A stretch of 64,000 bases of DNA from an uncultured Acidobacteriota bacterium (GTDB lineage: Bacteria; Acidobacteriota; Thermoanaerobaculia; Gp7-AA8): positions 657 to 64,656 of the forward strand of contig CAWCBB010000028.1 of assembly GCA_963793695.1 (NCBI GenBank). The letters are read 5' to 3'. Under the pieces are notes generated by a model that was not told the DNA's origin, ran no database searches, and worked only from the letters and a program-made list of their open reading frames with translations. Below, one piece after another: positions 1 through 48,654 of this stretch. The translations under genes were made by a program, and so were the position numbers. Each line of letters begins with the position of its first letter. Positions within the stretch are counted from its first letter, which is position 1.

Positions 1-160
1 TGCAGATTGCAGATTCGCGATTGACGGCCGCCGGTTTTGATTTTCGTTAATCGGCCAAGGTCATCCCCCAGAGCGGAGCGAGGATCTGGGTGGGGCAGCA
101 CTTACGCGATGGCGAAGAATGGCGCGGCCACCGATCCCACGAATCTCAATCTGCAATCGC
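1..160. repeat. Tandem-repeat-armed palindrome, TGCAGAT family (left edge cut by the window)
   Basis: TGCAGAT x2 plus a degenerate unit at 1-21. The inverted ATCTCAA TCTGCAA lies at 143-156. The core carries the box variant GTCATCCCCCAGAGCGGAGCGAGGATCTGG (60-89). Confidence 0.8.
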
Positions 161-4368: not shown

Positions 4369-4395
4369 TTCCTGTCAGTCTATCGATCGCGTTCG

Positions 4396-4566
4396 GAAGT
4401 CAAAGGCCGGGCACGGGCGCGGGCGCGTTCACGGGCGCGGGATTCGAACCGTGATCGACTCGCAGGACAAGGTCAACGATCAACGAACATGATCTCAATC
4501 AGCAATCGTACCGCTCGGCTCCCGTGCACGCGCCCGCGCCCGTGCCCGCGCCCGGCTTTTGCGTTC
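4396..4566. repeat. Tandem-repeat-armed palindrome, hexamer GGGCRC family
   Basis: Left arm: GAAGTCAAAGG followed by 6 hexamers (CCGGGC ACGGGC GCGGGC GCGTTC ACGGGC GCGGGA) at 4407-4442. Right arm: the inverted array at 4520-4555 followed by CTTTTG. It fills the pyrR-stop to pyrB-start spacer. Confidence 0.85.
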
Positions 4567-6424: not shown

Positions 6425-6455
6425 AAAGGAGGCCGCAAGGCCTCCTTTCTTTGTG
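6425..6455 (+). terminator. Rho-independent terminator after the M23 peptidase gene
   Basis: Perfect 10-bp stem AAAGGAGGCC / GGCCTCCTTT with a GCAA tetraloop, followed by CTTTGTGT. Confidence 0.7.
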
Positions 6456-6655
6456 TCTGGGTGTCTTGGGGTCTGGGAGTCTTGGCGTCGGTCTCGGCGT
6501 CTGGGTGTCTTGGGGTCTGGGAGTCTTGGCGTCGGTCTGGGAGTCGGGCGTCTCGGCGTCGGTCTCGGCGTCTGGGCGTCTTGGGGGGGTGGACTCGTGA
6601 CTCTGGACGCCTGGACCGACTCCCAGACTCCTGGACTCCAAGACCCCAAGACTGG
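6453..6655. repeat. Tandem-repeat-armed palindrome, octamer GTCTKGGN family (largest copy)
   Basis: About 17 units at 6455-6588, with a 44-nt higher-order repeat (6455 and 6499). The inverted arm has ~8 units (..GACTCCCAGACTCCTGGACTCCAAGACCCCAAGACT) at 6590-6655. There is almost no core. Confidence 0.85.
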
Positions 6656-6724
6656 CGTACGATCGACCCATCCACTCTGGCAACATCCGGGCCCGCGAGC
6701 GGCCCGATCGGAGGACCCGGCCCG

Positions 6725-15838: not shown

Positions 15839-15911
15839 AGAGTCGGGAGTCGGGAGTCAGGGGTTGATGGGGACGACGCCCCGCTCCCGACCCCAGACCT
15901 CCCGACTCGTC
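15839..15911. repeat. Tandem-repeat-armed palindrome, heptamer GAGTCGG family
   Basis: AGAGTCGG GAGTCGG GAGTCAG at 15839-15863. The inverted CTCCCGA CCCCAGA CCTCCCG ACTCGTC lies at 15884-15911. Confidence 0.75.
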
Positions 15912-17980: not shown

Positions 17981-18129
17981 GGATTGCGGATTGCAGATTA
18001 CCGATTGCAGATTGCAGATTGCAGATTACGGAGCCGAACAGGACCATCCCGGCATCATGCAAGGGAGGTGGCCTCATGCGGAGATGGCTCGTTCCGGCTT
18101 CGTAATCTGCAATCTGCAATCTGCAATGC
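17981..18129. repeat. Tandem-repeat-armed palindrome, TGCAGAT family
   Basis: 7 units (GGATTGC GGATTGC AGATTAC CGATTGC AGATTGC AGATTGC AGATTAC) at 17981-18029. 4 inverted units (GTAATCT GCAATCT GCAATCT GCAATGC) lie at 18102-18129. The core is itself an imperfect palindrome (GGAGCCGAACAGGACCATC / GATGGCTCGTTCCGGCTTC). Confidence 0.9.
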
Positions 18130-19786: not shown

Positions 19787-21046
19787 TCAGCGGGCCGCAA
19801 TCTCCCGGAACAACGCCTCGTAGGCGTCGACGACGCCCTCCCACGCGTAGTTCGCCCGTGCCCGTGCCCGTGCCCGTGCCCGGATCTCCGTGTCGTCCGA
19901 AGCGAGCGCGTCCGCGAGAACACGCGGGAACGAAGCCTCCCCCTCGAATCGGAAGTACCGGACCGACTCTCCCCCGACCTCCCGGTTCTCCGGCGTATCG
20001 AGCGCGAGCACGGCGCCGTTCGATCCCATCGCTTCGATCAGCGCCGGATGCGTCCCGCCGACCTCGGTCGCCTGGATGTAGATGCGCGCGCTCCGCTGCA
20101 GCGTCCGGTAATCGGCTCCGTAAATTGCGCCGGGGAGGATGACGCGCCCGCAGGGACTGCCTGCGGCGGTCCGTTTCCCGGCTGCGACTTCCTCGAGCCG
20201 CCTGATCAGCTCACTCGAATACGGCGCGCTCCCCACCATGACGAGCGGCAGATCGGTCGCCACGCGACGGAACGCCTCCGCGACCTCGAGCGGATGATTC
20301 TCCGGTTCGAAGCGGCTGACGTAGAGGACGTACCTCTCGGCCTCGAGCCCCAGCCGGTCGAGCACATCGCTATCCGGCTCCTCGGGGAAGTCCGATCCGT
20401 ACGCGATCGTCTCGGCTTCCACGGCGAACGCGTCGCGGTAGTACCGCGCGATCGTCGACGCGTCGGCGACGACGCGCGTCGAGAAGTGCGCCGCGAGCGC
20501 CTCCCCCGTCAGATAGACGACCTTCCCGAGGGCGTTCCACTTCTTCCTCTTCCGTTCGATGCCGTCGACGTTGGTCGCGACGGGAAACCGCGCGGCGCGG
20601 AGGATCGGGAGCACGAATGCGTTCGCCGCGTTGCACAAAAGGATCGCGTCGAACGTGTGCGCCGCCCGGTGTGGTGCGGGCGTCTCGCCCGCCCCTGGTT
20701 GGGCGGCTTCGTTCGAAGGGAGGCGGGCGAGGACGCCCGCACCACACGAGCCCTCGATCGCGCCGTTTTCGCGAATTGCACCCACGAAGATCGCGTGCAG
20801 CGCCGAGAGAAACGCATGCGAGACCGTCTCGAGGTACTTCTGCTCGATCGCGGGAAGGTGGACGAGCTCGATCCCTTCCCACGAAGCGGGTCGCTCGGGA
20901 TAGAGATACGAGCGGCAGTAGACCGTGACGCGGTGGCCGCGCGCGACGAGCCTGGTCCCGAGCTCCGCCGCGAACGTCTCGAATCCGCCGTAGCGCGGCG
21001 GGACCCCGCGCGTGCCGAGGATGGCGATCGAGAGAGGCGTCGGCAT
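19787..21046 (-). CDS. Glycosyltransferase family 4
   Basis: MPTPLSIAILGTRGVPPRYGGFETF N-terminus and GT4 C-terminal motifs (YIQATEVGGTHPALIEAMG). It carries three repeat insertions that keep the frame: REP doublet 20671-20745, REP 20150-20182, and (CCCGTG)4 at 19855-19878. Confidence 0.8.
   Translation of the reverse strand: MPTPLSIAILGTRGVPPRYGGFETFAAELGTRLVARGHRVTVYCRSYLYPERPASWEGIELVHLPAIEQKYLETVSHAFLSALHAIFVGAIRENGAIEGSCGAGVLARLPSNEAAQPGAGETPAPHRAAHTFDAILLCNAANAFVLPILRAARFPVATNVDGIERKRKKWNALGKVVYLTGEALAAHFSTRVVADASTIARYYRDAFAVEAETIAYGSDFPEEPDSDVLDRLGLEAERYVLYVSRFEPENHPLEVAEAFRRVATDLPLVMVGSAPYSSELIRRLEEVAAGKRTAAGSPCGRVILPGAIYGADYRTLQRSARIYIQATEVGGTHPALIEAMGSNGAVLALDTPENREVGGESVRYFRFEGEASFPRVLADALASDDTEIRARARARARANYAWEGVVDAYEALFREIAAR
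19855..19878. repeat. (CCCGTG)4 hexamer run inside the GT4 coding sequence
   Basis: It reads as ..IRARARARARA.. in frame. It is the same unit as the GGGCRC arm family, in reverse complement. Confidence 0.7.
20150..20182 (+). repeat. REP (GCAG variant) inside the GT4 gene
   Basis: GCAGGGACTGCC TGC GGCGGTCCGTTTCCCGGC. It is 33 nt, in frame (AGKRTAAGSPC on the coding strand). Confidence 0.8.
20671..20745. repeat. REP-A doublet inside the GT4 gene
   Basis: GTGGTGCGGGCGTCTCGCCCGCCC, a 27-nt spacer, then GGCGGGCGAGGACGCCCGCACCAC. It is 75 nt, or 25 codons, in frame. Confidence 0.9.
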
Positions 21047-22014
21047 CAGACGAACCAGGGGAGGATCTCGCGATCCGAGACCACGCGCCGGCGCTGGATC
21101 TCCCGGCGATGGCGAAGGATCCGCGCCCGATGTTGCCACAGCCACGCCCATGCGGGAAGCGAGCTTCGCTCGACCGTGAGCGTCGCCAGCGCGACGGCCA
21201 GGTCGCGGCCGATCTCCCACGGCGCGTTCCGGAGCGCGAGCGAGCGTCCCTCGTTCTTGAGCCGCAGCAGGAACCGGTTCTTCACCGAGTGCATGTTGAT
21301 CTCTTCCGGAAGCTCCCTCCGCACCTCCGGCGTCACGCGCCGCACGTGGTACGCGATCGCCTCCGGCACGTGGATGCTCCGCCACCCGAAGAGGCGCGCG
21401 CGCCATGCGAGATCCGCGTCCTCGCGGTACGCGAAAAAGTCCTCGTCGAAGATCTCGCCGTCGACGGCGACCGCTTCGAGACAGGCGCGCCGGTACATTC
21501 CGGCGGCGCCGGAGACCCCGAACACCTCCCGCGGCGCGGAGCCGCGGGGAGGAGGAGGATCCGTGATGTCGAGGTGCCGGCCGCTCCGCGTCATCCGGAT
21601 TCCGGTCGTGTCGATCGCCGCGAGCGGGCGCATCTCCTCCCCGGCCGCCCGGTAGAGCGTTCCCGTCGCCGACCCGAACGGCTCGCCGGAGCGCTCGAGC
21701 GCCGCGACGCACTCCTCGATGTAGCCCGTCTCGAGCCGCACGTCGGGATTGAGCAGGAGGACCCAGGGACCGCCGCTCGCGGCGATCCCCTGGTTCGCCG
21801 CCGCGGCGAAGCCTCGATTCTCGCGATTCCGGATCAGCGCCGCCGGAGCCGCGCGCTCGAGGATCCGCGCGGAGTCGTCGCTCGAGGCATTGTCGATGGC
21901 GACGAGATGGATCGCGCCCCCCTCGAGCTTCTGCCGCGAGAGCGCGTCGAGACAGCGCGGCAGCCAGCGCGCGCTGTTCCAGGCGATCAGGACCGCTGTG
22001 ACGTCTCGTCCCAT
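21046..22014 (-). CDS. Glycosyltransferase family 2
   Basis: VTAVLIAWNS, DNASSDDS, NRGFAAAAN, LLNPD and a DxD-like EDAD. Confidence 0.8.
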   Translation of the reverse strand: MGRDVTAVLIAWNSARWLPRCLDALSRQKLEGGAIHLVAIDNASSDDSARILERAAPAALIRNRENRGFAAAANQGIAASGGPWVLLLNPDVRLETGYIEECVAALERSGEPFGSATGTLYRAAGEEMRPLAAIDTTGIRMTRSGRHLDITDPPPPRGSAPREVFGVSGAAGMYRRACLEAVAVDGEIFDEDFFAYREDADLAWRARLFGWRSIHVPEAIAYHVRRVTPEVRRELPEEINMHSVKNRFLLRLKNEGRSLALRNAPWEIGRDLAVALATLTVERSSLPAWAWLWQHRARILRHRREIQRRRVVSDREILPWFV

Positions 22015-22946
22015 CGCCGCCACGCCTGAGAGAGCACCCGCCGGTACGCCGCGATCGCCTCGCCCTTCGGCGCCGCGCCGGTTCCGATCCCCACGGCCGC
22101 CGCTCCGATCCGGAGGATCATCCCGCCGACGACCGCCATCCGCACTCGTTCCGCATCCTTCTTCCCGAGCCATTTTCCCGCGTAGCGATAGAGATTGCGA
22201 TACCAGAGCTCGAGGAACCCGCCGAGCCCGAGGACCGCGAGCGAGGAGCCGCCCGCATGAACGACGCGCGCCGAAGGGACCAGGTAGAGCCGCGCGCCGG
22301 AATCGTGGATGCGCCGCGAGTAGTCGACGTCCTCGAACCAGGCGGGGAGGAACCTCTCGTCGAACGAGCCGATCGAGTCGAGCGTCTCTTTCCGCAGCAT
22401 GAGCGCGGCCGCCGCCGGCTGCTCGATCGCCTGCGTGCGCGTCAGGTCGAGCCCGCCGTAGCGGTAATGCCTCGACGCGCGGTTCGCCGGGTGGATCTTC
22501 TCGAAGAGGAGCACGTCCGCGAGGATGCTCCGGAGCGTCGGAAAGCGGCGCAGCTGAAACTCGCTCTGCGGCTCCCCGTCCTCGCCGATGAGCAGCGGGG
22601 CCGCTCCCGCCGCCGCGTTCCCGTCGAGAAACGCGACGAGCGTCTCGATCGACCCCGGCTGCGGCTCGCAATCGGGATTCAGAAGGAAGAGATACCTTCC
22701 CCGCACCCGCGGCAGCACGTCGTTGATCGCCCCCGCGAACCCCCGGTTCGTCCGCGACTCGACGAGCTCGGTTCCCTCGAGATCGACCCTCGCCGCGATC
22801 GCCGCGCTCTCATCGCCGGACGCGTTGTCCCAGACGATCGTCTCGAACGATCGCGCGCCCGCGGCCGCGGGGATCGCCCGCAGGCAGCGCTCGATCCAGG
22901 GAGCGCTGTTCCAGGAAACGACGAGGATCGAGACGTCGGGAGTCAT
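21987..22946 (-). CDS. Glycosyltransferase family 2
   Basis: VSILVVSWNS, DNASGDES, NRGFAGAIN, LLNPD and FEDVDY. The start codon directly abuts a repeat arm. Confidence 0.8.
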   Translation of the reverse strand: MTPDVSILVVSWNSAPWIERCLRAIPAAAGARSFETIVWDNASGDESAAIAARVDLEGTELVESRTNRGFAGAINDVLPRVRGRYLFLLNPDCEPQPGSIETLVAFLDGNAAAGAAPLLIGEDGEPQSEFQLRRFPTLRSILADVLLFEKIHPANRASRHYRYGGLDLTRTQAIEQPAAAALMLRKETLDSIGSFDERFLPAWFEDVDYSRRIHDSGARLYLVPSARVVHAGGSSLAVLGLGGFLELWYRNLYRYAGKWLGKKDAERVRMAVVGGMILRIGAAAVGIGTGAAPKGEAIAAYRRVLSQAWRRWDETSQRS

Positions 22947-23094
22947 TGCAGATTGCTGATCGCAGATTGCAGATTGAAAGTCAAAAACCGGGCGCGGGCG
23001 CGTTCACGGGCGCGCCCCCCTCGCCCCGTGAGCGAAGCGAACGGGGAGAGGGGCCGGGGGTGAGGGGCAATCTGCAATCTGCAATCTGCAATCA
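22947..23094. repeat. Tandem-repeat-armed palindrome, TGCAGAT family, with nested modules
   Basis: Left arm TGCAGAT TGCTGAT CGCAGAT TGCAGAT at 22947-22974. Right arm GCAATCT x3 plus GCAATCA at 23067-23094. Inside are a single GGGCRC arm (GAAAGTCAAAAACCGGGCGCGGGCGCGTTCACGGGCGCG, 22973-23013) and a CCCCGT..ACGGGGAGAGGGGCCGGGGGTGAGGGG box (23015-23067). Confidence 0.9.
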
Positions 23095-24204
23095 TCGATG
23101 ATCGATCGCCTCGACCAGCGGCCGGACCACTTCGCTCCACGCAAACCGCGGGCGCAGCCGCTCGAGGTTCAATACGCACGCCGCGTGAAATGCGTCGTCT
23201 TCGACGAGCCGGCGGATCCCCGCCGCGACCGTCGGCAGCGACTCCGGCTCGACGACGACCCCGAGCCCTTCCGACTCGACGAGATCCGCGGCCCATCCGC
23301 CGCGCGTCGCGACGACCGGGATCCCGAAGGCGATCGCGTCGAAGAGGCGCGTCCGGATCGAGAGCTCGGACTCCGCCGTCACTCCGTGCAGCATGATCGA
23401 GAGGCGGCACCCCGCGAGCCATCGCCCCCGCTCGCGATACGGGACCCACTCGTCGTTCCGCAAAATGAACGATTCATCCCCGCTGATCGGCAGCCCCACC
23501 TTCCCGTCGATGTTCCGGTTCGGATGCCCCGTTCCGAGGAAGAGGAGCCGCACGGCGACTCCGTCGGCGTTGAGCTGCTCGACGGCGGTGACCGCGAGCT
23601 TCGGATCGAGCCACTCCCACGTTCCTCCTCCCCAGGCCGCCACGGGCGGTCCGGGAGGAATGGCCGGCTCTCCCCTTCCGGGATCGACCTCCGCGCCGAA
23701 GGGGATCTCGAGCCAGCGGTCGGGCCAGCGGACGATGTCTCCGGTGCGCGAGGCGTGGACGCCGAGGTAGAAGTCGCGCTGGCGGGAGGTGGCGGCGATG
23801 CAGCGCCAGCCGGTGCGGAGCGCGACGGCGAGGCGCCCCCACTCGAGCTGCCGGTGCACGCGCATCCGCAGCGTGGGATCCCGGCGCACGAGCTCCTCGA
23901 GCTCGAGCACCGTCGGATCGAACAGGTCGTAGATGGCGCGCCGGTGCCGCACCGAGAGCACCTCGCGCCGCGGCTGCCCGATCAGCACGTCCGCGGATCG
24001 CATCGCGGCGCGCGCGCCGGGGGACCCCCACTCGGCGGTCTCGAACCCCTGCGGCTCCAGCTCCCGCAGCTGCGCGACGAGCACCACGTCGAAGTGGCGC
24101 GCGAGCTCGGTCGCGAAGTGAAACGCACGGATTCCCGGGCCGGCCATGCGGGAGCCGACCACATCGGGGGTCACGACGGCGACGCGCGTCATCGGCGCGG
24201 ACAT
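23092..24204 (-). CDS. Glycosyltransferase (GT-B fold, GT4-like)
   Basis: 370 aa with a C-terminal FDAIAFGIPVVATRGGWAADLVESEGLGVVVEP motif. The start overlaps the upstream stop (TAATG), and the stop lies inside a repeat arm. Confidence 0.65.
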   Translation of the reverse strand: MSAPMTRVAVVTPDVVGSRMAGPGIRAFHFATELARHFDVVLVAQLRELEPQGFETAEWGSPGARAAMRSADVLIGQPRREVLSVRHRRAIYDLFDPTVLELEELVRRDPTLRMRVHRQLEWGRLAVALRTGWRCIAATSRQRDFYLGVHASRTGDIVRWPDRWLEIPFGAEVDPGRGEPAIPPGPPVAAWGGGTWEWLDPKLAVTAVEQLNADGVAVRLLFLGTGHPNRNIDGKVGLPISGDESFILRNDEWVPYRERGRWLAGCRLSIMLHGVTAESELSIRTRLFDAIAFGIPVVATRGGWAADLVESEGLGVVVEPESLPTVAAGIRRLVEDDAFHAACVLNLERLRPRFAWSEVVRPLVEAIDHR

Positions 24205-25100: not shown

Positions 25101-25127
25101 GAATTGCAGATTGCAGATTGCAGATTA
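25101..25127. repeat. One-armed TGCAGAT array
   Basis: TGCAGAT x3 at 25105-25125, between the stop at 25125-25127 and the start at 25079. I see no inverted partner. Confidence 0.7.
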
Positions 25128-27187
25128 CCGATCCCGTTCGATGCGATCGAACGTGATCGCGCCGCGAGTCACGCGAATCGCGGGCCGTTGGTGCTGACGT
25201 TCAGTGGGAAGTTTGACGAAGCCGTCGCCCGTCGGCGGTACTTCGTGGATCCGGCCGTCGATCTCGAAAGACCCTCCATTCTCCGCGCGCACGTGGATCG
25301 TCGCGGGCCCCGGCTGCATGCGGAAGCGCATCGATTCGCCTTCGCCGAGCCGCCACCCTCCCGTGAAGCGGAAGCGCGCGACGGTCCAGATCTCCGGGTC
25401 GAGCAGGCCCTGGCGGTGATCGACGTGCACGTCTTCGAATTGAACCACGGAACCGGGGCGCAGCCCCGCCGCGAGGAAGAGCGTGAGCGCGAGAGCTGCG
25501 ACGATCGCGGCGGCGCGGCCTGTGGTGCGGGCGTCCGCCCGCCCAGGAGGGCGGCATCCCCCACCCGAGGCGGGCGAGACGCCCGCACCACACCGAACGC
25601 CACGATCGCGATGAGCAGCAGGATCGCCGCGGCCCACGCCGCGCCGTTCGGCCGGATGAAGCTCGGCAGCAGCCGCGAGAAATCGCTTCCGAAACGGATC
25701 GACAGCCATTCGCCGAGCACCGACTCGCCGCTCGCGATGTGGAAGAGGCGCCAGGGGAACGCGACGCCGTGGACGGCGAGGAGCGCGGTCCAGACCGCGA
25801 CGGGCGCGAGCCATGCGCGCGTCCGCTCGAGCAGCGCGCCCGCGGAGACCGCGACCAGCGGCGCGAACACGACCAGATAGCGCAGCGGCGGCGACCAGCC
25901 GCCATGCCACTCTTCGCGCGGCAGGAGGAGGATCAGATACGGGACAGCGGCGATCGAAGCTGCACGGATCGCGAAGTGACTCGTTCTCCGTTCTCCGTTC
26001 TCCGTTCTCCGCGGCAGGGGCTCGTCTTGCGCCGACGGAACGGCGTTTGCGCCGGAGAACGGAGAACGGAGAACGGAGAACGCCTTTGTGAGAGCAGCAA
26101 CGAGTGCCGCGAACCAGACAGGCGCTTGCAGCAGCATCCCCGCCTGCCCGTCGAGGAGCAGCCCGAACATGCCGCGCGCGTATTTCCAGAGCGACGCCGG
26201 CGCGAGCTCACTCCACCGATGCACCTGGAGAGGGTTGCCGACCAGGAGCCAGCCGCCGAGGAGCGGAAGGGCGACGACCGCCGCGAGCGCGAGCGCGAGT
26301 TTCCGCGCGCCTCGGTCGGAGATCACGACGACGAGCGCGAACACGGCCGCGATCGCCATGAAGCGGAGTTGCAGGAGCGAGAGAGCGACGAGCCACGCCG
26401 CCAGCCGGCCGTACTTCCGCTTCCCCGCGGCCCGCATCGCTTCGCTCAGGCAGAGGGCTCCCGGAACCTCCGGCCAGATGCGCACCGCGTAGAAAAGGAA
26501 GGGAGGGGCGAACGCGAGGAGCGGCCAGAGGCGAAGCGCCGCCTTGCGGGAAACGCCGTGCTCCTCGGTGAGCGCGAAAATCGATCCGACGGCGGCCGCG
26601 CCGAGGAGCGCGATCGTCGCCATGGCGCCCCATAGGCCGCCGAGGGCGACCCCCGGGACGAGCAGGAGCGGCAGGAACGGCTCGTGCCGCGCGTAGATCT
26701 CCCCCGCCGGCCCGACGGGATCGAACGGCTGCGGCTGGAGATCCAACCGCTGCGTCGCGGACCGCTCGAGGTGCGCGTACTGGTTCGCGAGATCGAGATC
26801 GCGGTCGTGAAGGATCGACTCCGCGATCAGCACGTAGTACGGCTCGTCGCCGTCGATCGGCCAGGCGAGCGTCTCGGTTCCCACGATCAGGAAGATCGCG
26901 GCGGCGAAGACCGCGGCCGCGCGCGGCGACCACCGCACTTCGCCTGCGGGAACGAGCGCGCACCAGAGAAGGAAGTGCGCGAGCTTCGCCGCGACGACGA
27001 TCGCGAGGAGAAGCGAGGGGGCTAGATGGACCCCGAGCGCGCCGGCGGAAGCGAGGGAGCCGCCGAGGGCGACCCACGTCGCCACGTCGGAGATCACGAA
27101 GCGGCGGCGATGGAGAGGGAGAAACCAGTGCGGCGCGGCGCTGATCAGCGCCGCGAAAAGGATGAGGAGGATCTGCTCGCGCGTCAT
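25125..27187 (-). CDS. Large polytopic GT-C-like (ArnT/PMT_2-like) membrane glycosyltransferase, frame switched at a REP doublet
   Basis: More than 12 hydrophobic segments and a DGDEPYYVLIAESIL first-loop motif. ORF 25169..27187 is protein-like down to the REP doublet at 25522-25591. Downstream of it, the protein-like frame is that of ORF 25125..25910 (..VVQFEDVHVDHRQGLLDPEIW..). The gene also contains the 99-nt GGAGAAC palindrome at 25983-26081 in frame. Confidence 0.6.
25522..25591. repeat. REP-A doublet inside the GT-C gene, 70 nt, coincident with the frame switch
   Basis: The first hairpin reads GCGGGCGTCCGCCCGC, one nt shorter than GCGGGCGTCTCGCCCGC in the other copies. Confidence 0.85.
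25983..26081. repeat. Tandem-repeat-armed palindrome, GGAGAAC family, inside a CDS
   Basis: GTTCTCC x4 (25983-26010), a 43-nt core, then GGAGAAC x4 (26054-26081). The total is 99 nt, or 33 codons, read through in frame as SVLRSPFSGANAVPSAQDEPLPRRTENGERR. Confidence 0.9.
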
Positions 27188-28923
27188 CGCGGCGCGACCT
27201 CCATCCTCTCGATCTGGAGGCGCGCTCCGGGCGGGAGCGCGCGGTCGGCCGCGACGATCATCCTGCCGATCGGCCGTTCGAGGCGGACCCGCAGCCGCCC
27301 CTCGCCGCGCAGCGACGCCTCGCGACCTTCACCGCCGATCGTCCATCCCGGACTCCGCGGCAGAGGATTCCGCGTGCGGAAGAGATCGCCGCTTCGAAAG
27401 GCGCCCCAGTCGGCGATCTCGCCGGCGCGGATCGGCCGCGCCCAGGCCTCCCCCGCCGCGTCGACGACGTCGAGGCGCCCGAGGAGCGTTCCCTCGTCGA
27501 GGCCGGAGATGTTGGCGCCCGAGATGATCACGTCGATCGCCCGGCTCTCGAGCGGCGGCTCGAGGACGAACGACTCCCCGGCGGCGATCGAAGTGAGGAC
27601 CGGCTCGACGTGTCGCGGCTCCTCGGGGAGGACGATGATGAAAACGACGAATGAGGCCGCAGCGATCGCGGACGCTGCGATCGTGGGGTGCGGGCGTCCC
27701 GCCCGCCCCCGGGTGGGGGAGGAGGCCCACGCCACCGCGATCGCCGCGACGATCGCGAACGGCACCCAGAGCTCGCGATCCGCAAAGAGCGGAAACGCGG
27801 CCGCCGCGGCGCCGCTCCACGCGGAGAGGGCGATCGCGCAGAAGAGGAGCGCGCCGGTGACGGCCGCGGCCCGTGACGCACGCGGCGACTCGCGCCGCGA
27901 CAAGACGAGGAGCGCCATCAGCGCGAGCAGCAGCGCCGGATGCGGGCGCGCGAACAGCGAGAGCGCGAAGAGGAGCGCCGCCGCGACACGCTGCCACCAT
28001 TCCGCGGGCGCGAACAAAGCCCCCGGCGCGAACCCGGCGCCGGCGATGGCCCCGGCCGCGCGGCTCGCCGTCAGCGCCGGGATGGCGATCATCGCCGCAG
28101 GGACCGGCTGCGCCGGTCCGTTTCTCCTTCGAAGAAACGTCGCCCCCGCCCGTGCCGCGAGGACGACCGCGACGCCTGCCGCCATCCACCTGCCGACGAC
28201 GAGCGCGAGAACCAGCGACGCGACCCCGAATGCAATCGCAGGGGCGCTCCGCGGGCGCCCGGAATCGCGGACCGCGAAGAACGCCAGCGCGATCGCCACC
28301 GGGATCAGCGCAGCGTCCCACGGCGCCAGCGGCGTCGCGAGGGCGATCGCGACGATGAGGAAGAAAGCCGCGAGCGACACCCCGGGTGGGGTGCGGGCGT
28401 CCTCGCCCGCCCCCGGGCGGGGGGATTCCGCGACCGCCCAGCCAGAGGCGGGCGAGGACGCCCGCACCCCACCGGTCCCTACGACCAGCGCCACGGTCCC
28501 CGCTGCCAGCAGAAGGAGCGGCGGAACCACGCTCCCGTCGAACGGAAACGCCCGCGTCGCCACGACGAGCAACGCGAGCGCGATCGCGCGCCCCTGCGGC
28601 ACCGTCCCCTCACGCGCGACGTCGACGACCGCGATCGCGAATGCCGTCGCAAGGAGAACGCCGTAGACGAGGTGCCGCGCGGGATCCGCCGGGATCGCGA
28701 TCGCCGCGCCGAGGATCAGCGGGATCGTCAGCGCGATCCATTGCGCCGCCCCCTCCGAGACCGCGATCGCGCCCGCGACCGACGCGAGAAACACCCAGTA
28801 CGGCAGAGCGGCGTCGGTGCCGCTCGTGAACCCGGCCAGCCGGGCCACCGCGAACGCGAGGGCGCAGCCGGCCAGAGCGAGGAGAAAGGCGCCGGGTCCA
28901 CGATTCGCCGTCACGTCCGGCAC
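27184..28923 (-). CDS. Polytopic membrane protein with C-terminal soluble domain (polymerase/ligase-like role possible)
   Basis: 579-aa ORF with a GTG start and ~12 hydrophobic segments. The stop overlaps the next start (ATGA). It contains three in-frame REP insertions (27685-27746, 28097-28127, 28385-28473). Confidence 0.5.
   Translation of the reverse strand: MPDVTANRGPGAFLLALAGCALAFAVARLAGFTSGTDAALPYWVFLASVAGAIAVSEGAAQWIALTIPLILGAAIAIPADPARHLVYGVLLATAFAIAVVDVAREGTVPQGRAIALALLVVATRAFPFDGSVVPPLLLLAAGTVALVVGTGGVRASSPASGWAVAESPRPGAGEDARTPPGVSLAAFFLIVAIALATPLAPWDAALIPVAIALAFFAVRDSGRPRSAPAIAFGVASLVLALVVGRWMAAGVAVVLAARAGATFLRRRNGPAQPVPAAMIAIPALTASRAAGAIAGAGFAPGALFAPAEWWQRVAAALLFALSLFARPHPALLLALMALLVLSRRESPRASRAAAVTGALLFCAIALSAWSGAAAAAFPLFADRELWVPFAIVAAIAVAWASSPTRGRAGRPHPTIAASAIAAASFVVFIIVLPEEPRHVEPVLTSIAAGESFVLEPPLESRAIDVIISGANISGLDEGTLLGRLDVVDAAGEAWARPIRAGEIADWGAFRSGDLFRTRNPLPRSPGWTIGGEGREASLRGEGRLRVRLERPIGRMIVAADRALPPGARLQIERMEVAPR
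27685..27746. repeat. REP-A copy with adjacent degenerate partner, inside a CDS
   Basis: GGGGTGCGGGCGTCCCGCCCGCCCCC followed by GGGTGGGGGAGGAGGCCCACGCCACC. Confidence 0.7.
28097..28127 (+). repeat. REP (GCAG variant) inside a CDS
   Basis: GCAGGGACCGGC TGC GCCGGTCCGTTTCTCC. Confidence 0.8.
28385..28473. repeat. REP-A doublet inside a CDS
   Basis: GGTGGGGTGCGGGCGTCCTCGCCCGCCCCC ... GAGGCGGGCGAGGACGCCCGCACCCCACC, read through as GVRASSPASGWAVAESPRPGAGEDARTPP. Confidence 0.85.
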
Positions 28924-28941: not shown

Positions 28942-29052
28942 AAATGCAAAATGCAAAATGCAAAATGCAAAGTCCAAGAAAGGGTCGAGGATCCTGGCGT
29001 CGAAACCCTTTTTGCATTTGTCATTTTGCATTCTGCATTTTGCATTTCTTCT
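28942..29052. repeat. Tandem-repeat-armed palindrome, AT-rich AAATGCA family
   Basis: AAATGCA x4 at 28942-28969. The inverted TTTGCAT TTGTCAT TTTGCAT TCTGCAT TTTGCAT lies at 29011-29045. The core holds the hairpin AAAGGGT..ACCCTTT. Confidence 0.9.
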
Positions 29053-31844: not shown

Positions 31845-32588
31845 GTGCGCGTTCTCCTGACGCTGCAATACCTCGGCACGCGCTACGCCGGGTGGCAGTC
31901 GCAGGAGAACGCGCTCGCGGTCCAGCAGGTCGTCGAGGCCGCTCTCGGCACGCTCTGCCGCGAGCCGGTCCGCGTCGTCGGCGCCAGCCGCACCGACGCG
32001 GGCGTTCACGCCGAGGATCAGAAGGCGCACTTCGACCTGCCGATCCCCATCGGTCTCCGGGGCCTCCTCCTCGGGCTCAACGACCTGCTGCCGAGAGACG
32101 TCCGCGCGATCGCGGCGCGCGAGGTCGCGCCCGACTTCCACGCGCAGCATCGCGCGATCGCGAAGACCTACCGCTATCAGATCTGGAACGGGGAGATCGC
32201 CGACGTCTTCCGCGCCGCGACCTGGGCTCACGTCCGCGCGCCCCTCGAGCTGGGGCTGATGATCGAAGCCTCGCGCGCCCTGGTCGGGCCGCACGACTTC
32301 CGCGCATTCACCGTCGTGGAGCCGGAGGTCGCCTCGACCGAGCGGGCGATCGACGGCCTCGAGCTGAGCGGGGAGGGCCCGGCCATCACCATGCGCGTGA
32401 CGGCCGCGGGCTTCCTCCGCTACATGGTCAGACGCATCGCCGGCCAGCTCATCGAGATCGGCCGGGGCAAGCTGCCGGTCGACGCGGCCGCCGCCGCCCT
32501 CGAGCCGACCTTCGCCGAAGCGCGCTGGACCGCGCCGCCGGAGGGGCTGGTCCTCGAGCGGGTCCGTTATGAGGACGAGGACGAATGA
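31845..32588 (+). CDS. truA: tRNA pseudouridine(38-40) synthase
   Basis: GASRTDAGVHA catalytic motif. 247 aa with a GTG start. Confidence 0.9.
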   Translation: MRVLLTLQYLGTRYAGWQSQENALAVQQVVEAALGTLCREPVRVVGASRTDAGVHAEDQKAHFDLPIPIGLRGLLLGLNDLLPRDVRAIAAREVAPDFHAQHRAIAKTYRYQIWNGEIADVFRAATWAHVRAPLELGLMIEASRALVGPHDFRAFTVVEPEVASTERAIDGLELSGEGPAITMRVTAAGFLRYMVRRIAGQLIEIGRGKLPVDAAAAALEPTFAEARWTAPPEGLVLERVRYEDEDE

Positions 32589-32733
32589 GTCCAGGAGTCC
32601 AGGAATCTAAGAGTCTTGGCGTCCGAAATTCAGCGTCCGCGATGCGGATCGGACCGTTTCGGGGCGTCCCGATTGCTGCATTCAGGTGCTGACCGCCGAC
32701 TCCCAGACGCCAAGACTCGTGGACTCCCGACTG
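32587..32733. repeat. Tandem-repeat-armed palindrome, octamer GAGTCCAG family
   Basis: 5 octamers at 32587-32626, starting inside the truA stop codon. 5 inverted octamers lie at 32694-32733. Confidence 0.85.
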
Positions 32734-34470: not shown

Positions 34471-34568
34471 GGTCTGGGGGTCTAGGGGTCCCGCGCCCGG
34501 GCCCGCGCCCGGACCCGCGCCCGGCCTTTGACTTCTGGACTCGATACCGCCCTCGCGCCTAGACTCGG
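34471..34568. repeat. Composite: octamer GGTCTGGG arms enclosing a single GGGCRC-family arm
   Basis: GGTCTGGG GGTCTAGG GGTCCCGC (34471-34494), then CCGCGC CCGGGC x3 plus TTTGACTT (34491-34534), then the inverted CTGGACTC..CTAGACTC (34535-34566). It ends about 6 nt before the dxr ATG. Confidence 0.8.
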
Positions 34569-34573: not shown

Positions 34574-35753
34574 ATGCGCCGCATCTCGATCCTCGGCTCC
34601 ACCGGCTCCATCGGCCGCAGCACTCTCGCGGTCGTCGACGCCTTCCCCGACCGGCTGGAGGTCATCGCCCTCTCCGCGGGGCGCAACGTCGAGGTCCTCG
34701 CCGAACAGGTCCGCCGCTACCGCCCGCAGCTCGTCTCCCTCGGCCACGAGGCCGACGAGCCGCGCCTTCGCGAGCTTCTCGGACCCGAGGACCCTCCCGA
34801 GATCGTCTGCGGCAGCGAGGGGGCGCGCGCGGTCGCGACGCACCCCGGCTCGGACACCGTGATCGCGGCGATCGTCGGCGCGGCCGGGATTCCTCCCGTC
34901 TACGACGCCCTCCTCCGCGGCAAGCGCGTCGGCATCGCGAACAAGGAAGTCCTCGTCGCCGCGGGCGACCTGATGACCGAGGCCGCGCGGAAGCATGGAG
35001 GCGAGATCCTTCCGGTCGACTCCGAGCACAACGCCGTGCACCAGGCGATCCGCTGCGGCGGCCATGACGAGATCCAGCGCATCATCCTCACCGCCTCCGG
35101 CGGGCCGTTCCTGCGGCGCGACATCGCGACCTTCGGCGAGATCACCGTCGACGCCGCCCTCGCGCATCCGACCTGGAAGATGGGGAGCAAGATCTCGATC
35201 GACTCCGCGACGATGATGAACAAGGGGCTCGAGGTCATCGAGGCGCATCACCTCTTCGGGCTCGAGGCCGACCGGATCGACATCATCATCCACCCGCAGT
35301 CGATCGTTCACTCGATGGTGGAGTTCGTCGACGGATCGATCATCGCGCAGATGTCGACCGACCGACATGAAGTTCCCGATCCAGTACGCCCTCCTCTATC
35401 CCGAGCGCACCCCCGCTCCCTTCGCCCGCCTCGACCTCGGCAAGATCCGGCAGCTCGAGTTCCTCCAGGTCGAACCGGAACGTTTCCCGGCGGTCGCGCT
35501 GGCGTACGAAGCCCTCTCCGCCGGCGGCTCCGCGCCGGCCGTGCTCAACGCCGCGAACGAGATCGCCGTCAGCCGGTTCCTCCACGGCGAGATTCCGTTT
35601 CTGAGCATCGTGGAGATCGTCCGCACGGTCTTCGACAAGCACCTCCCCTCGCGCGCCCCCCTCGGCTCCATCGACGACGCCCTCGAGTGGGACCGCTGGG
35701 CGCGCAATGAAGCGCGCGGAGTGCATGTTGCTCAAGTAGTCGGGGAGAAGTAG
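34574..35753 (+). CDS. dxr: 1-deoxy-D-xylulose-5-phosphate reductoisomerase, one frame disruption
   Basis: ILGSTGSIG, DSEHNA, SGGPF, HPTWKMG and NKGLEVIEA lie in ORF 34574..35710. The C-terminal domain (MKFPIQYALLYPER...) lies in ORF 35367..35753. The switch is near 35356-35366. Confidence 0.9.
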
Positions 35754-35891
35754 GCAGGGAGAAGGGTCCCCCCCCGACCGGGTGGCACGATCTTCGATGA
35801 GCGAAACCGCGGTCCCTATCGGGTCGTACTGAATTGGAACGGATCCCGGTCACGCGAACCCTTCTCCCTGACTCCATTTCCCTGACTACAA
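35735..35891. repeat. Tandem-repeat-armed palindrome, 14-nt unit GGGAGAAGTAGGCA
   Basis: Left arm at 35735-35769, overlapping the last dxr codons and the TAG stop. Right arm CTTCTCCCTGACTCCATTTCCCTGACTAC at 35861-35889. The rseP ATG is at 35896. Confidence 0.75.
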
Positions 35892-37224: not shown

Positions 37225-38191
37225 GGGAGCGCGGGCGTCCTCGCCCGCCGTTGCGGCGGCGTCCCGCCGCCGATCCGCAATGGCGCCGCGGGACGCGGCG
37301 CCAACGGCGGCCGAGACGGCCGCGCCCCTGAAGGCTTTCCGAGGTACACTTTCCCTCCCACCTTCGCTCTCTGACGCTGCCTGCTTCGGCGACGTCAAAT
37401 GAGAACCACACGAACGATCCTCTATTCAACAACTGCGCATCTGAGGATCCGCGGCCGGTCCCGCCTTCCACACTTCGAGCTGGATCACGCGATCTATTTC
37501 GTCACCTGGCGACTCGCCGATTCGCTGCCGCAGCATGTCGCAGAGGATCTGCAGAAGGAATGGAAGTGGCTGGGTGAGCAGCTTCAGACGCGCGAAATGA
37601 CGCCCGCCGCACGGAGCGCTCTGTTGAGTCACTATTCGAAGACATACGAGGGGGCTCTCGACGAGGGGTTCGGCTCCTGCATTCTTTCGAATCGCGACGC
37701 GGCGCACATCGTCCAGGGAGCACTCCTCTTTTTCGACCAGCAGCGGTACGACCTGTTCGCCTGGGCGGTAATGCCCAACCACGTTCACGTCGTGTTCTTC
37801 CTTGAGAGAGGAGACCAACTGGATCGCGTACTCCATTCGTGGAAGTCGTTCACGGCACATCGAATCAACCAACGTCTCGACCGGCGCGGAAAACTGTGGC
37901 AGGACGAGTACTTCGACCGGATTGTCCGCGACGAGCGCGAGCTCGAGCAGACGATTCAATACGTGATCAACAACCCCGCCGCGGCGGGCATGCAGGACTG
38001 GCCTTTCGTCGGAGCAAAGTTCCGGGGAATTGAATAACGGAGCAGCTGCAGCTGGTGTCGGGCGTCCTCGCCCGCGACAGGGGCGCGGGCGTCCTCGCCC
38101 GCCGTTGCGGCGGCGTCCCGCCGCCGCCAGATCCGGATACAAGGCGCCGCGGGGACGCGGCGCCAACGGCGGCCGGGACGGCCGCGCCCCT
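37225..38191 (+). mobile_element. RAYT gene with flanking compound REP-B palindromes
   Basis: Left flank 37225-37329 and right flank 38080-38191 are near-identical ~105-nt units: GGG(A/G)GCGCGGGCGTCCTCGCCCGCCGTTGCGGCGGCGTCCCGCCGCCG..GGCGCCGCGGGACGCGGCGCCAACGGCGGCCG(A/G)GACGGCCGCGCCCCT. An extra half hairpin lies at 38055-38079. Confidence 0.7.
37399..38037 (+). CDS. REP-associated tyrosine transposase (RAYT, IS200/IS605-like Y1 HUH enzyme)
   Basis: 212 aa with the HUH motif PNHVHVVF, the catalytic-Tyr motif IQYVINNPAAAG, and the N-terminal RLPHFELDHAIYFVTWRL. It is flanked on both sides by compound REPs. Confidence 0.8.
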   Translation: MRTTRTILYSTTAHLRIRGRSRLPHFELDHAIYFVTWRLADSLPQHVAEDLQKEWKWLGEQLQTREMTPAARSALLSHYSKTYEGALDEGFGSCILSNRDAAHIVQGALLFFDQQRYDLFAWAVMPNHVHVVFFLERGDQLDRVLHSWKSFTAHRINQRLDRRGKLWQDEYFDRIVRDERELEQTIQYVINNPAAAGMQDWPFVGAKFRGIE

Positions 38192-38227
38192 GTGGGACCC
38201 ATCACGATCGCGAACCAACGCGCCGTG

Positions 38228-39507: not shown

Positions 39508-39702
39508 ATTGCAGATTGCAGATCTCGGATTGCAGATTGGCGTCGGCCCCATCACTCCGCCATTTCAAGACTACGCGTCATGCGCCTCCCCCACCCAGAT
39601 CCCTCGCTACGCTCGGGATGACATGAGCGCGAGTAGCTGCCTCCGCGCCCGTGCACGCGCCCGCGCCCGCGCCCGGTTTTTCCAATCTGCAATCTGCAAT
39701 CA
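39508..39702. repeat. Tandem-repeat-armed palindrome, TGCAGAT family, with nested modules
   Basis: Left arm at 39508-39538. Right arm AATCTGC x2 plus AATCACG at 39684-39704, overlapping the ABC-F stop. Inside are the inverted box CCAGATCCCTCGCTACGCTCGGGATGACATG (39595-39625) and a single GGGCRC arm (39644-39683). Confidence 0.9.
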
Positions 39703-41623: not shown

Positions 41624-41761
41624 GATTGCGGATTGCAGATTGCAGATTGCAGATTACGGAGCCGGACGGAGCGTTTCTCTCTCCGAACGACCCTCGGCAC
41701 TGCAAACCACGAGCGCTAGCGTACAATTGCACCGATTCTCAATCTGCAATCTGCAATCGAC
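41624..41761. repeat. Tandem-repeat-armed palindrome, TGCAGAT family
   Basis: 5 units at 41624-41658. The inverted units GATTCTC AATCTGC AATCTGC AATCGAC lie at 41734-41761. The core begins TACGGAGCCGGAC, as in the 17981 copy. It lies between the divergent ABC-F and pdxJ starts. Confidence 0.9.
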
Positions 41762-42500: not shown

Positions 42501-42630
42501 AAATGCAAAATGCAAAATGACAAATCCAAAGGGGGAGCTCGGTTCTCTCCCTGAATCAGCGTCCCTGCCCCACGCACGGTTCTCTTTTTGGATTTTTCAT
42601 TTTGCATTTTGCATTTTGCATTTTTCTTCT
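42501..42630. repeat. Tandem-repeat-armed palindrome, AT-rich AAATGCA family
   Basis: AAATGCA AAATGCA AAATGAC AAATCCA at 42501-42528. The inverted ..CATTTTG x3.. lies at 42584-42630. It is preceded by a perfect 9-bp GC hairpin GCCGGCGGC TTC GCCGCCGGC (42480-42500). It lies between convergent genes. Confidence 0.9.
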
Positions 42631-43555: not shown

Positions 43556-43575
43556 GGTATCCCTCGATCTTGAAT

Positions 43576-43770
43576 TGCAGATTGCAGATCGCAGATCGCA
43601 GATTGCAGATTAGCTCTCTACCGCAGGCTGCGGATTATAGGATGTCATCCCGAGCGTAGCGAGGGATCTGGGCGGAGGACGCGCGTAACGCGGCTTCGTT
43701 CTCAGGCGGGATCCTCAACCCCACGCCCGATCAGCAATCCCCAATCCCCGATCCGCAATCCCCAATCCGG
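43576..43770. repeat. Tandem-repeat-armed palindrome, TGCAGAT-related, diverged right arm
   Basis: TGCAGAT/CGCAGAT x5 at 43576-43610. The box GATGTCATCCCGAGCGTAGCGAGGGATCTGG lies at 43641-43671. The right arm GATCAGC AATCCCC AATCCCC GATCCGC AATCCCC AATCCGG lies at 43729-43770. Confidence 0.8.
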
Positions 43771-44312
43771 CATATACCGATCGATAGATACCGCCTCGCC
43801 CCCTCCCCTGCCACAATCCCCCTGCGCCCTGAGCGGCGATTGCTGATCCCGCGTGGGGAACGATCTGACCGGAGCGTTCTCCCGCCTTCAGCAATCGTCG
43901 GTCCGGGCGACCGTGGAACCGATCCCCTCCCTCACCGACAATGGGTCCGGGAGCCCGGCCATTTTTCTCAGCAGCGATCCATCGAGCGCGTTCCGCGCGC
44001 GATCGTCACCGCGCGCGGGACTCCGCTCGACCGTGCCGCGCATCCCGAGCGCTTCCTGCACGATCTCCCACACGTCCGCGATCGAGGTCTCCACGCCGGT
44101 ACCGACGTTGAACGCCCCCGCGAGCCGCTGATCCGCGGCCGCCAGGTTCGCCCGTACGACGTCGCCAACGAAGATGAAGTCGCGAGTCTGCCCCCCATCC
44201 CCCGCAATCTTCGCCGCCTCCCCTCGACGCAGTGCATCCGCAAAGCGAGCAATCACCGAGCGATCCCTCGACCTCTCATTCAAAAGAGGAGCGACATCGC
44301 CGCGCGTCAGTA

Positions 44313-44371
44313 CCCTCTCCCCGCTGACGGCGGGGAGAGGGTGGCCGAGCGAAGCGAGGCCGGGTGAGGGG
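44313..44371. repeat. Hairpin box CCCTCTCCCCGC TGAC GGCGGGGAGAGGG + GAGCGAAGCGAGGCCGGGTGAGGGG inside the epimerase paralog
   Basis: Related to the box at 23015-23067. It is read through as ..PLPAVSGERV.. Confidence 0.7.
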
Positions 44372-44794
44372 TACGCGCGATCCGAGCTCGAGTTCGGGTC
44401 GGGCGGCGGGAGGAGACCCTCGTAGAGATTGGCGTACCGAAGAATCGTGAGCCCCACACCCCGCGAAGTGCACACCGCAGAAACCGCCCGCTCCACCGCC
44501 AGCTTCGACCGCCCGTTCGCCGTATTCGGCCGCAGCGCATGCGTCTCCGAAATCGGCAGCATCTCCGCGTCCCCATACACGAAGCCGCTGGAAGCCAGCA
44601 CGACGTGCGAAGCCCCGCCGTCGATCGCCGCCTCGACGAGTCGCGCGGATCCGAGAACGTTGACGCGCCGGTCCTCCTCCTCGCCGGCATTCAAGGCCGC
44701 CAGGTCATACGCGAGATGGTGCACGACGTCGGCGCCCGCCTCGCGGACGGCACCCTCGAGCACCGGATCCCCGAGCGATCCTTCGATGGCGGCG

Positions 44795-44827
44795 TTCGGG
44801 ACCGCCTGCGGCGGTCCGTTTCCCGCC
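44795..44827 (+). repeat. REP inside the epimerase paralog, at its frame switch
   Basis: TTCGGGACCGCC TGC GGCGGTCCGTTTCCCGCC. Confidence 0.8.
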
Positions 44828-45105
44828 TTTCGGAAACCGCCGAACCGCCGCCACGACCTCGTCTCCCCTCTCCAGATACGCCCGAACGAGGCGCGCCCCC
44901 AGAAACCCGGTCGCGCCGGTGATCAGCACCCTCATGCGATTCATTGTAGATCGCGCCCTCGCCGGCGCCCCGTCCCAGCCGGGCTCCCGTTCACACGCTT
45001 TCCGTCACCTCGACCTTTGACTTATGCGGTTCGATATATCGACGCCTCGCACGAAAAGGGGCGATCCTCGTTCCACCCGGGAATCGACCTGGACGGGGGC
45101 TGGCC

Positions 45106-45483: not shown

Positions 45484-45553
45484 CCGGCGGGGTGGCGGCT
45501 CTGGACTGCGGGCAGCGGCCGTTCCCCGGCGCCGCCGGCACGATCCAAATTGG

Positions 45554-45585
45554 CCCCGTAGGGCCGCACAGCGTGCGGCCGTTTC
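45554..45585 (+). repeat. GTAG-type REP
   Basis: CCCCGTAGGGCCGCAC AGC GTGCGGCCGTTTC. Confidence 0.8.
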
Positions 45586-45884: not shown

Positions 45885-45945
45885 GTGACCGGCCCGCTTG
45901 AGCCGACGAACGAGGCGTACGCGGTCGCGAAGGATCGCGGGGCTC
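45885..45945 (+). pseudogene. Short remnant resembling GDP-L-fucose synthase
   Basis: TGPLEPTNEAYAVAK matches the conserved L-TGPLEPTNEPYAIAKIAG block of fcl/WcaG. No further similarity is visible on either side. Confidence 0.25.
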
Positions 45946-45952
45946 AATACAG

Positions 45953-48653: not shown

Positions 48654-48654
48654 T

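Follow-up and report, generated by a model that had tools for sequence, protein, structure and literature searches.

Introduction

Heptameric repeats of the short tandemly repeated repetitive (STRR) type are said to have been reported from cyanobacteria by Mazel in 1990. In many bacteria, no other long simple repeats are as over-represented as those of heptamers, and polymerase slippage has been proposed as their cause (Mrazek 2007, as cited in PMC4679880 and PMC4692102). In Xanthomonas, about 185 GGGAATC arrays, with 70-75 convergent pairs, lie at a mean distance of 28 nt from the upstream open reading frame (ORF); PMC4692102 describes them as transcribed, with no function found, and with a strand bias as here. 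The Nostocales carry 7-bp STRR hairpins between the co-transcribed hupS and hupL, for which PMC2670836 gives a proposed role in transcript stability or translational coupling. In marine Beggiatoaceae, TAACTGA arrays abut start codons, and a Shine-Dalgarno (SD) sequence is present in only ~10% of those spacers (MacGregor 2015, PMC4679880), and the repetitive extragenic palindromic (REP) sequences of E. coli modulate termination and decay in ways that vary with their context (bioRxiv 10.64898/2026.03.23.713779). The element studied here is the palindrome of the spacer 22944-23094, located between two glycosyltransferase genes on the minus strand of a 64,000-nt stretch of DNA (the window, contig CAWCBB010000028.1 of assembly GCA_963793695.1, from an uncultured Acidobacteriota bacterium).

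A first-pass annotation had read this palindrome and its relatives in the window as operon punctuation, tied to the missing SD sequences of the genes behind them. We think it rather probable that the spacer is instead one copy of a population of abundant REP-like, heptamer- (or octamer-) armed palindromes, the inverted-pair form of STRR or long simple sequence repeats (LSSR), tolerated behind the stop codons of SD-less operons with short spacers. The pattern is real yet largely ordinary; the host phylum, the diversity of the units and the comparative results are new.

Results

The focal spacer

The window has a G+C content of 67.5%. That the palindrome occupies the whole focal spacer, as had been claimed, proved correct: (ATTGCAG)n, a core and (CTGCAAT)n take up all 145 nt between the stop codon of the upstream glycosyltransferase gene and the start codon of the family 2 glycosyltransferase (GT2) gene (21987-22946). 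Its three parts are the following.

23067..23094, minus strand: 5' arm in the mRNA sense, (ATTGCAG)x3.9, array proper 23093-23067, overlapping the stop TGA (23094-23092) of the upstream glycosyltransferase gene
22977..23066, minus strand: core, a GC-rich mosaic of half a (CGGGCG)n palindrome with a T-run and a CCCCTCGCCCCGTGAGCGAAGCGAACGGGGAGAGGGG hairpin
22944..22976, minus strand: 3' arm, (CTGCAAT-like)x4.6, G-poor, array proper 22976-22945, overlapping the ATG of the GT2 gene

The 3' arm shares 2 nt, the AU of the start codon, with the ATG 22946-22944. The predicted RNA fold of the 191-nt region reaches -102 kcal/mol (z = -8.8), a stability attained by 0 of 200 shuffled sequences, and pairs the start AUGA with UCAU of the last codons of the upstream gene. 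The GT2 Pfam domain begins at residue 6 of the downstream protein, and no alternative start is found in frame upstream. Furthermore, a direct repeat ATGA flanks the element (CG-ATGA-TTGCAG ... CTGCA-ATGA-CTCC, 22944-23098, minus strand), which would fit an insertion into an ancestral ATGA stop/start overlap accompanied by a 4-bp duplication.

The metagenome relatives of the focal GT2 gene are at most 58% identical, and a search for strain-level polymorphism found no contigs with the exact proteins of the focal locus. Many metagenome GT2 homologues (L403-L478, for example L413 3001-4286) span ~1,250-1,300 nt for ~310 residues, which implies an insertion of ~300 nt inside the gene relative to the window copy.

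The same junctions in relatives

RseP relatives place the source in Thermoanaerobaculia (Acidobacteriota), the best identity being 75%, and the comparison was made on 80 genomes with a conserved truA-uppS-cdsA-dxr-rseP order. In these genomes the cdsA-dxr and dxr-rseP spacers exist in two states: either they measure -4 to ~15 nt, often with an ATGA overlap, or they measure 50-290 nt and are filled by hairpins with tandem 7-8-mer arms. The arm unit is genome-specific (for example GTGCTGA, CGTTGGC, AGTCCTG, AAGGCAG/AAAGCAG, ATGAGGC, AGTAGGC, GGTTTTC, GTTGTCC or AAAGGCTC), and the presence of an element at each junction is patchy on the RseP tree. The window copies at cdsA-dxr and dxr-rseP are lineage-specific gains, because the closest relatives keep tiny spacers there (6-8 nt at cdsA-dxr, and 8 nt at dxr-rseP in L121). 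At the divergent pdxJ/ABC-F spacer, some relatives lack an element, and others carry one with 9-mer or with CGTTAAC arms.

These genomes also allow the SD status of the starts to be compared with and without an element. An SD was scored when the duplex of positions -22 to -3 with the anti-SD had dG <= -6, a threshold reached by 25% of random 20-mers. In the window, the eight starts listed in the first-pass annotation as lacking an SD behind an element do lack it (dG +1.0 to -2.1 kcal/mol, no GGAG/GAGG) and the seven listed as SD-bearing do bear it (dG -5.9 to -10.7 kcal/mol), and about half of the ordinary genes of the window are likewise without an SD. Where an arm lies at least 18 nt from the start (43555, 39478, 17950 and 6725), an SD is present in the gap. 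The choice of start codons was checked with Pfam and is supported for five of the eight, the uppS domain (start 32769) beginning at residue 33 and those of the genes starting at 22946, 34574, 35896 and 41765 at residues 3-11; 25079, 28923 and 41613 are without confirmation by an N-terminal domain. Among the orthologous uppS, cdsA, dxr and rseP starts of the 80 relatives, an SD is found in 13% of the 139 element-free short spacers versus 3% of the 38 armed ones (Fisher p = 0.08), so that 87% of the element-free starts have none, and the six relatives in which pdxJ is still divergent all lack an SD before it. Since the orthologous cistrons mostly lack an SD even when they are free of elements, SD-lessness precedes the elements, and the postulated link between the two does not hold: SD-less starts occur irrespective of the elements, an outcome that the first-pass annotation had itself named as refuting its reading.

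The pdxJ gene deserves separate consideration. In the relatives L199-L206, hexamers resembling a -10 box (TATAAT, CATAAT, TATACT, TACTCT, TACCCT) were seen by eye 6-16 nt before the pdxJ ATG, which suggests that pdxJ mRNAs are leaderless or have a very short leader in this clade; a consensus promoter scan was silent on these hexamers. In the window, a TACAAT sits in the core of the pdxJ element, 37 nt upstream of the gene. Were it a -10 box, the hairpin would be missing from the pdxJ mRNA, which would have the G-poor 3' arm alone.

Duplexes of 24-45 bp would be substrates of RNase III on general biochemical grounds, and the arms do provide the duplex of ~20 bp or longer that marks an RNase III site; by this analogy, they are a likely target of RNase III, and processing by it is plausible. 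A dedicated punctuation role goes further, and states that selected RNase III sites cut the mRNAs and leave short or no leaders, thereby making an SD unnecessary. Perfect duplexes of 24-45 bp, a 3' arm that is poor in G and in start codons beside the AUG, hairpins kept through compensatory changes (see below) and the leaderless appearance of pdxJ in relatives, by which the clade appears to tolerate short leaders, all speak for it. We nevertheless consider such a conserved role unlikely, since SD-lessness is older than the elements, the elements are patchy at each junction and absent from the closest relatives, copies also occur at convergent and divergent junctions and inside ORFs, and the sense strand has no G-U signature. 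Nor is there any excess at co-directional junctions: 12-13 of the 15 copies in the window are so placed, which is about the share of such junctions in it (~75%, by our own count from the gene map).

Properties of the repeat class

A census of arrays of at least three copies, made on 844 kb from relatives, returned 17 arrays of 6-mers, 126 of 7-mers, 19 of 8-mers and 1 of 9-mers. A strict inverted partner exists for 68 of the 126 period-7 arrays, and relaxed matching gives 88 pairs. The same unit recurs at several loci of a genome (AAGGCAG in L143, AGTGCTG in L148), and related unit families reappear in scattered lineages.

The elements are anchored at the upstream stop codon. The main helix begins at a median of 1.5 nt after the stop (within 5 nt in 27 of 38 cases) and ends at a median of 8.5 nt before the start; downstream of the hairpin at truA-uppS, the ancestral 10-35 nt persist. 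They are also polar: G exceeds C in the 5' arm of 59 of 70 de-duplicated elements (p = 4e-9; 35 versus 5 when counted by locus), and the G-rich arm comes first in 28 of the 28 ATTGCAG pairs found across phyla among the matches listed. Operon spacers hold 38 NTG triplets in their start-proximal half versus 104 in their stop-proximal half, and 413 versus 640 G. Because the palindrome reads alike on both strands, the arm poor in G and in start codons faces any downstream start.

This geometry invites the reading of a hinge for translational coupling, in which the base of the stem would join stop and start, and the terminating ribosome would melt or shunt the lower stem, so that downstream initiation would need upstream translation. 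The distances of the helix base from stop and start fit it, as do the ancestral junctions, whose overlap or spacing of at most 15 nt implies coupling, the pairing of the focal start AUGA with UCAU of the upstream gene, the SD that accompanies arms lying at least 18 nt from a start, and the coupling proposed for STRR hairpins (PMC2670836). However, coupling is impossible at the divergent starts and convergent stops that the same elements also occupy, their geometry is trivially expected from insertion into tiny spacers, no G-U signature is seen, and SD-like sequences are not clearly enriched before the 5' arm. The hinge is in our view quite unlikely.

The arms, which measure 24-45 nt, form near-perfect duplexes, and they change together. 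At one and the same junction, in spacers of 71 nt each, the arms are (GTGCTGA)n...(TCAGCAC)n in L144 and (GTGCTCG)n...(CGAGCAC)n in L169; between L148 (AGTGCTG) and L175 (AGTCCTG), the hairpin is likewise kept by matching changes of the unit in both arms. Despite these compensated arms, 4-fold synonymous sites are merely 51-62% identical in the two pairs, and the loops diverge freely. An excess of G-U wobble pairs in the sense strand, which would be a sign of selection at the RNA level, was looked for in 67 spacers, and the trend was opposite: in 45 of the 67, the antisense strand folds more stably than the sense strand, and G-U pairs are few. With no RNA signature in the sense strand, the complementarity of the arms looks maintained at the DNA level.

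Another reading is that of DNA-level binding arrays, whose heptads would be bound cooperatively by a genome-specific protein, in the way that ribbon-helix-helix proteins of the omega/ParG type bind 7-bp heptads, or by a nucleoid protein, the hairpin being incidental. The strict 7-bp period, unit families proper to each genome and shared among many of its loci, Watson-Crick perfect arms without an RNA signature and a fixed orientation would all be expected of such arrays. We judge them very unlikely all the same, as different unit families occur side by side in one genome, the elements lie behind stops and not at promoters, no candidate protein was identified, and an arbitrary control heptamer is equally widespread across phyla among the matches listed, a result more in keeping with a mutational origin than with specific recognition.

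The cores of the window copies share no common body and align only over an unrelated nested repeat; they are mosaics of other repeat families.

Other copies in the window

The window of 64 kb contains ~15 copies, and the ATTGCAG unit is found at 7 loci. Besides the focal element, they and their related forms are the following, with the strand where one applies.

1..15: partial ATTGCAG-type arm at the window edge
4408..4548: palindrome of a related class, bordered by A and T runs, whose arms are (CGGGCG)n hexamers, lying between co-directional minus-strand genes
6448..6657: octamer arrays, GTCTNGGN and its inverted partner GACTCCNN, downstream of a terminator-like hairpin; the SD-bearing start 6725 follows them
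15840..15900: (GAGTCGG)x2.7 with a partial inverted partner, between co-directional minus-strand genes
17982..18127: ATTGCAG element containing the upstream stop 18057-18055; the start 17950, with its own SD, is 31 nt away
25103..25126: single (ATTGCAG)x3.4 array, CTGCAAT in the mRNA sense, overlapping the TAA 25127-25125, 23 nt before the start 25079
25982..26082: (CGTTCTC)x4.3 ... (GAGAACG)x4.3, in frame within a membrane-protein ORF
28942..29047: (AAATGCA)n ... (TGCATTT)n element, preceded by the diaminopimelate-epimerase stop 29070-29068 and followed by the start 28923
32587..32727, plus strand: octamer-armed element of the GAGTCCAG type, beginning inside the truA stop; the uppS start is 41 nt downstream
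34471..34567, plus strand: cdsA-dxr element with a GGTCTGGG/GGTCTAGG arm, a (CCCGCG)n core and a CCTAGACTC partner, separated by 4 nt from the stop and by 6 nt from the start
35736..35889, plus strand: dxr-rseP element with arms of 14-nt period, which supplies dxr with its final 6 codons and its stop and ends 6 nt short of the rseP ATG
39508..39701: ATTGCAG element holding the ABC-F stop; the CinA start 39478, with an SD, is 29 nt away
41624..41758: ATTGCAG element separating two divergent starts, that of ABC-F (41613) and that of pdxJ (41765); its core carries the -10-like TACAAT (41722-41727)
42501..42624: AAATGCA element at a convergent junction, with the stop of pdxJ on one side and that of an epimerase gene on the other
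43574..43768: (ATTGCAG)x5.4 with the partner array (CAATCCC)n; the TTG start 43555, with an SD, is 18 nt away

Most of the contacts with coding boundaries described in the first-pass annotation withstood re-examination. The truA stop lies within the array at 32587, the arm at 35736 reaches into the end of dxr, whose true stop (35751-35753) is inside the arm, and the ABC-F stop 39702-39700 falls within the arm 39683-39701. As for the distances from arm to ATG, the 6 nt at dxr and at rseP agree with those given, whereas that at pdxJ is 6 nt and not 3; on the other side of the same spacer, the arm ends 10 nt before the ABC-F ATG. Two entries of the copy list had to be amended, as the element at 25103 is single-armed and that at 25982-26082 is in frame inside an ORF; the other boundary claims stood.

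Some elements supply stops and C-terminal residues to the upstream gene, such as the last six codons of dxr and ~24 codons of the gene ending at 18055. An in-frame copy is also found in a Gemmataceae kinase gene (L079 2280-2341), between HRDLKPANIL and KITDFG. The ATTGCAG, AAATGCA and CGTTCTC units are free of stop codons in all six frames.

The heptamer-armed elements are absent from the last 20 kb of the window (44000-64000), compared with ~15 in the first 44 kb. The G+C content falls to 0.62-0.63 at 48-52 kb, and the coding signal is weak there. Frameshifts lie inside cdsA (~34150), dxr (~35360), a gene for a pyridoxal phosphate-dependent decarboxylase (~17840) and a membrane-protein gene (~25500), with Pfam domains or coding signal resuming in another frame; they are probably indel errors of the assembly, pseudogenes being less likely.

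Known families and neighbouring repeats

Rfam gave no match at E <= 1 over 22850-23200, and BLAST against plasmids gave no match. The sole Rfam match at gathering level in the window is an Acido-Lenti-1 RNA (RF01687) at 53259-53304 on the minus strand, with 39.9 bits for a gathering score of 37.

Several identities were tried and rejected. Scans for a promoter or terminator consensus within the elements found nothing. A miniature inverted-repeat transposable element (MITE) with a shared body does not account for them: inverted arms are present, but the cores are mosaics and the loops differ even between close relatives. An association with a REP-associated tyrosine transposase (RAYT) was discarded, as the Y1 transposase genes of the window and of the relative L120 are flanked by a different REP family. 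ATTGCAG is not a conserved motif across phyla; the exact array is found in more than 118 contigs from many phyla, including Chloroflexota, Planctomycetota and Verrucomicrobiota, and the arbitrary control (ACTGGAT)x3.4 is equally widespread among the matches listed, mostly as unpaired direct arrays. Finally, an SD upstream of the 5' arm that would be looped to the AUG is unsupported, the duplex energies before the stop being barely stronger than at element-free junctions.

Like REP sequences, the elements are abundant, genome-specific extragenic palindromes, other units dominating other genomes; the fixed 5' tetranucleotide or consensus of REP sequences is missing, the arms being periodic heptamers of several unrelated units. 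The marks of heptameric simple sequence repeats and STRR are all present: an excess of period 7, paired arrays, a G-rich coding strand near the upstream ORF and variation of the junctions between relatives.

A role as terminators or attenuators without a U-tract, setting relative expression within operons, was also weighed. The proximity of the elements to stops, the U-rich 3' arm of the AAATGCA family and its place between convergent genes, and the modulation of termination and decay by the REP sequences of E. coli (bioRxiv 10.64898/2026.03.23.713779) would agree with it. It seems extremely unlikely, since the terminator consensus scan flags none of the elements (although the AAATGCA family does have its U-rich arm), most units are without a T-run, and elements lie inside essential conserved operons such as uppS-cdsA-dxr-rseP.

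Other repeats share the window. A classical REP-RAYT arrangement occupies 37240-38193, where GC-rich palindromes with GCGGGCGTCCTCGCCCGC as their basis (37240-37315 and 38077-38193) border an IS200-like Y1 transposase gene (37399-38037, Pfam Y1_Tnp); palindromes related to them occur at 2039-2138, 28385-28473, 53494-53592 and 58033-58323, and in the relative L120 (6080-6689) a different REP stands on both sides of the homologous Y1 gene. Another dispersed repeat, ATGTCATCCCGAGCGTAGCGAGGGATCTGGG, distinct from these, is found at 43645-43672, 39600-39637, 58-90 and 53464-53494, often nested in the cores of heptamer elements. Hexamer-armed (CGGGCG)n palindromes or their halves, with the flanks AAAG...CCGGGC and GCCCGG...TTTT, lie at 4395-4565, 54340-54780, 19854-19882, 22989-23014, 34490-34524 and 39643-39675; they look like bidirectional terminators, and their halves are found inside heptamer-element cores. 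A tandem repeat of 166 nt (2.8 copies, 91% identity, 57856-58323) holds REP-like palindromes.

Discussion

The model we propose for the focal spacer combines the birth of a repeat and the selection of its place. The arrays would grow and shrink by slippage in steps of 7 nt, the complementarity of the arms would be kept at the DNA level through arm-to-arm templating or turnover of copies, and the copies would spread within the genome by some route. Purifying selection would then remove the copies that damage genes and leave those located directly behind stops, with the G-poor arm toward the next start. The ancestral operon spacers of this lineage, to judge from the junctions of relatives, measure -4 to ~15 nt and the internal cistrons are SD-less from the outset, which is consistent with translational coupling or with SD-independent initiation. 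An insertion behind the stop into a spacer of 0-15 nt fills it from stop to start and brings the G-poor arm to the would-be SD position. In the polycistronic mRNA, the element would fold into a hairpin of 25-45 bp that may act as REP sequences do, as a barrier to 3' exonucleases or a modulator of decay and termination, and that would probably be a target of RNase III; the ribosome terminating at the base of the stem would open its lower part and thereby free the start codon that follows.

Several observations weigh against the interpretation of the spacer as a tolerated REP-like copy. Neither a dispersal mechanism nor a trans-acting factor was identified; target-site duplications are not consistent, since among 35 junction copies no regular flanking direct repeat was seen and only the focal one has ATGA...ATGA; and the Y1_Tnp gene of the window (37399-38037) is bordered by a different, GC-rich repeat family. 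In the window, an SD (dG <= -6) is found at 0 of the 8 starts abutted by an element versus 18 of the 37 other genes (Fisher p = 0.014). Moreover, the persistence of the hairpin through near-saturated synonymous divergence, the polarity of the arms and their anchoring at the stop could reflect positive selection for a function at the RNA level and not mere tolerance.

Could the hairpins be a functional replacement, throughout the class, of the overlapping stop/start junctions, the base of the stem bringing stop and start together and terminating ribosomes re-initiating across a palindrome of 70-150 nt as a bacterial counterpart of ribosome shunting, possibly with RNase III cutting? We regard this as a rather improbable proposition. 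If it were true, selection on the device would account for the G-first polarity and for the depletion of NTG.

In conclusion, our reading of the focal spacer as a tolerated repeat bears on a question that has stood since 1990, the function of heptamer repeats, for which this lineage offers an unusually clean comparative system, with junctions that do and do not carry hairpins in dozens of genomes. Thanks to the polarity, the anchoring at stops and the co-evolution of the arms, coupling, mRNA processing and the birth of repeats become open to direct tests. As regards annotation, filled spacers are not evidence for a special SD-less regulation, and such repeats may supply stops and C-terminal residues or sit in frame within genes.

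Comparison with known systems

In the early mRNAs of phage T7 and in the Correia elements of Neisseria, long duplexes in polycistronic transcripts are cleaved by RNase III, which separates the cistrons. Cleavage has been mapped at those sites, whose sequence or position is conserved, whereas the elements of the window are not conserved in position and are known from sequence alone. The resemblance is closer with REP sequences, bacterial interspersed mosaic elements (BIME) and REPINs of Enterobacteria and Pseudomonas, which are likewise abundant and genome-specific palindromes of 3' untranslated and intercistronic regions, form hairpins in the mRNA, are poorly conserved in position, lie in mosaic clusters and have context-dependent effects on decay and termination. 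The arms of the window, in contrast, are tandem heptamers without a conserved GTAG-type head, and no cognate RAYT was found for them. The TAACTGA arrays of Beggiatoaceae also lie within a few nt of starts, have G-poor units, are rarely accompanied by an SD and are scattered across phyla; they consist, however, of a single unit in nearly always direct arrays (one is indirect), whereas the elements of the window are inverted pairs anchored at the upstream stop.

The nearest counterparts are the STRR and the heptamers of Xanthomonas (GGGAATC) and Nostoc (GGGGA(C/T)T), which have the same 7-nt units (PMC4692102), the same intergenic arrays of ~4 copies and the same convergent stem-loop pairs. The Xanthomonas and Nostoc heptamers are also nearer the upstream ORF, have their G-rich strand on the coding side behind ORFs and vary between close relatives (PMC4692102). 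The present elements differ from these two by their host, an Acidobacteriota of the Thermoanaerobaculia, and by their many unit families in place of one unit prone to form G-quadruplexes. Compensatory concerted evolution and NTG depletion, which are shown here, go unmentioned for the STRR, Xanthomonas and Nostoc repeats in the sections of those papers considered here. Finally, in comparison with STRR-type repeats, the spacers of the present lineage are so short that the hairpin spans the entire distance from stop to start.

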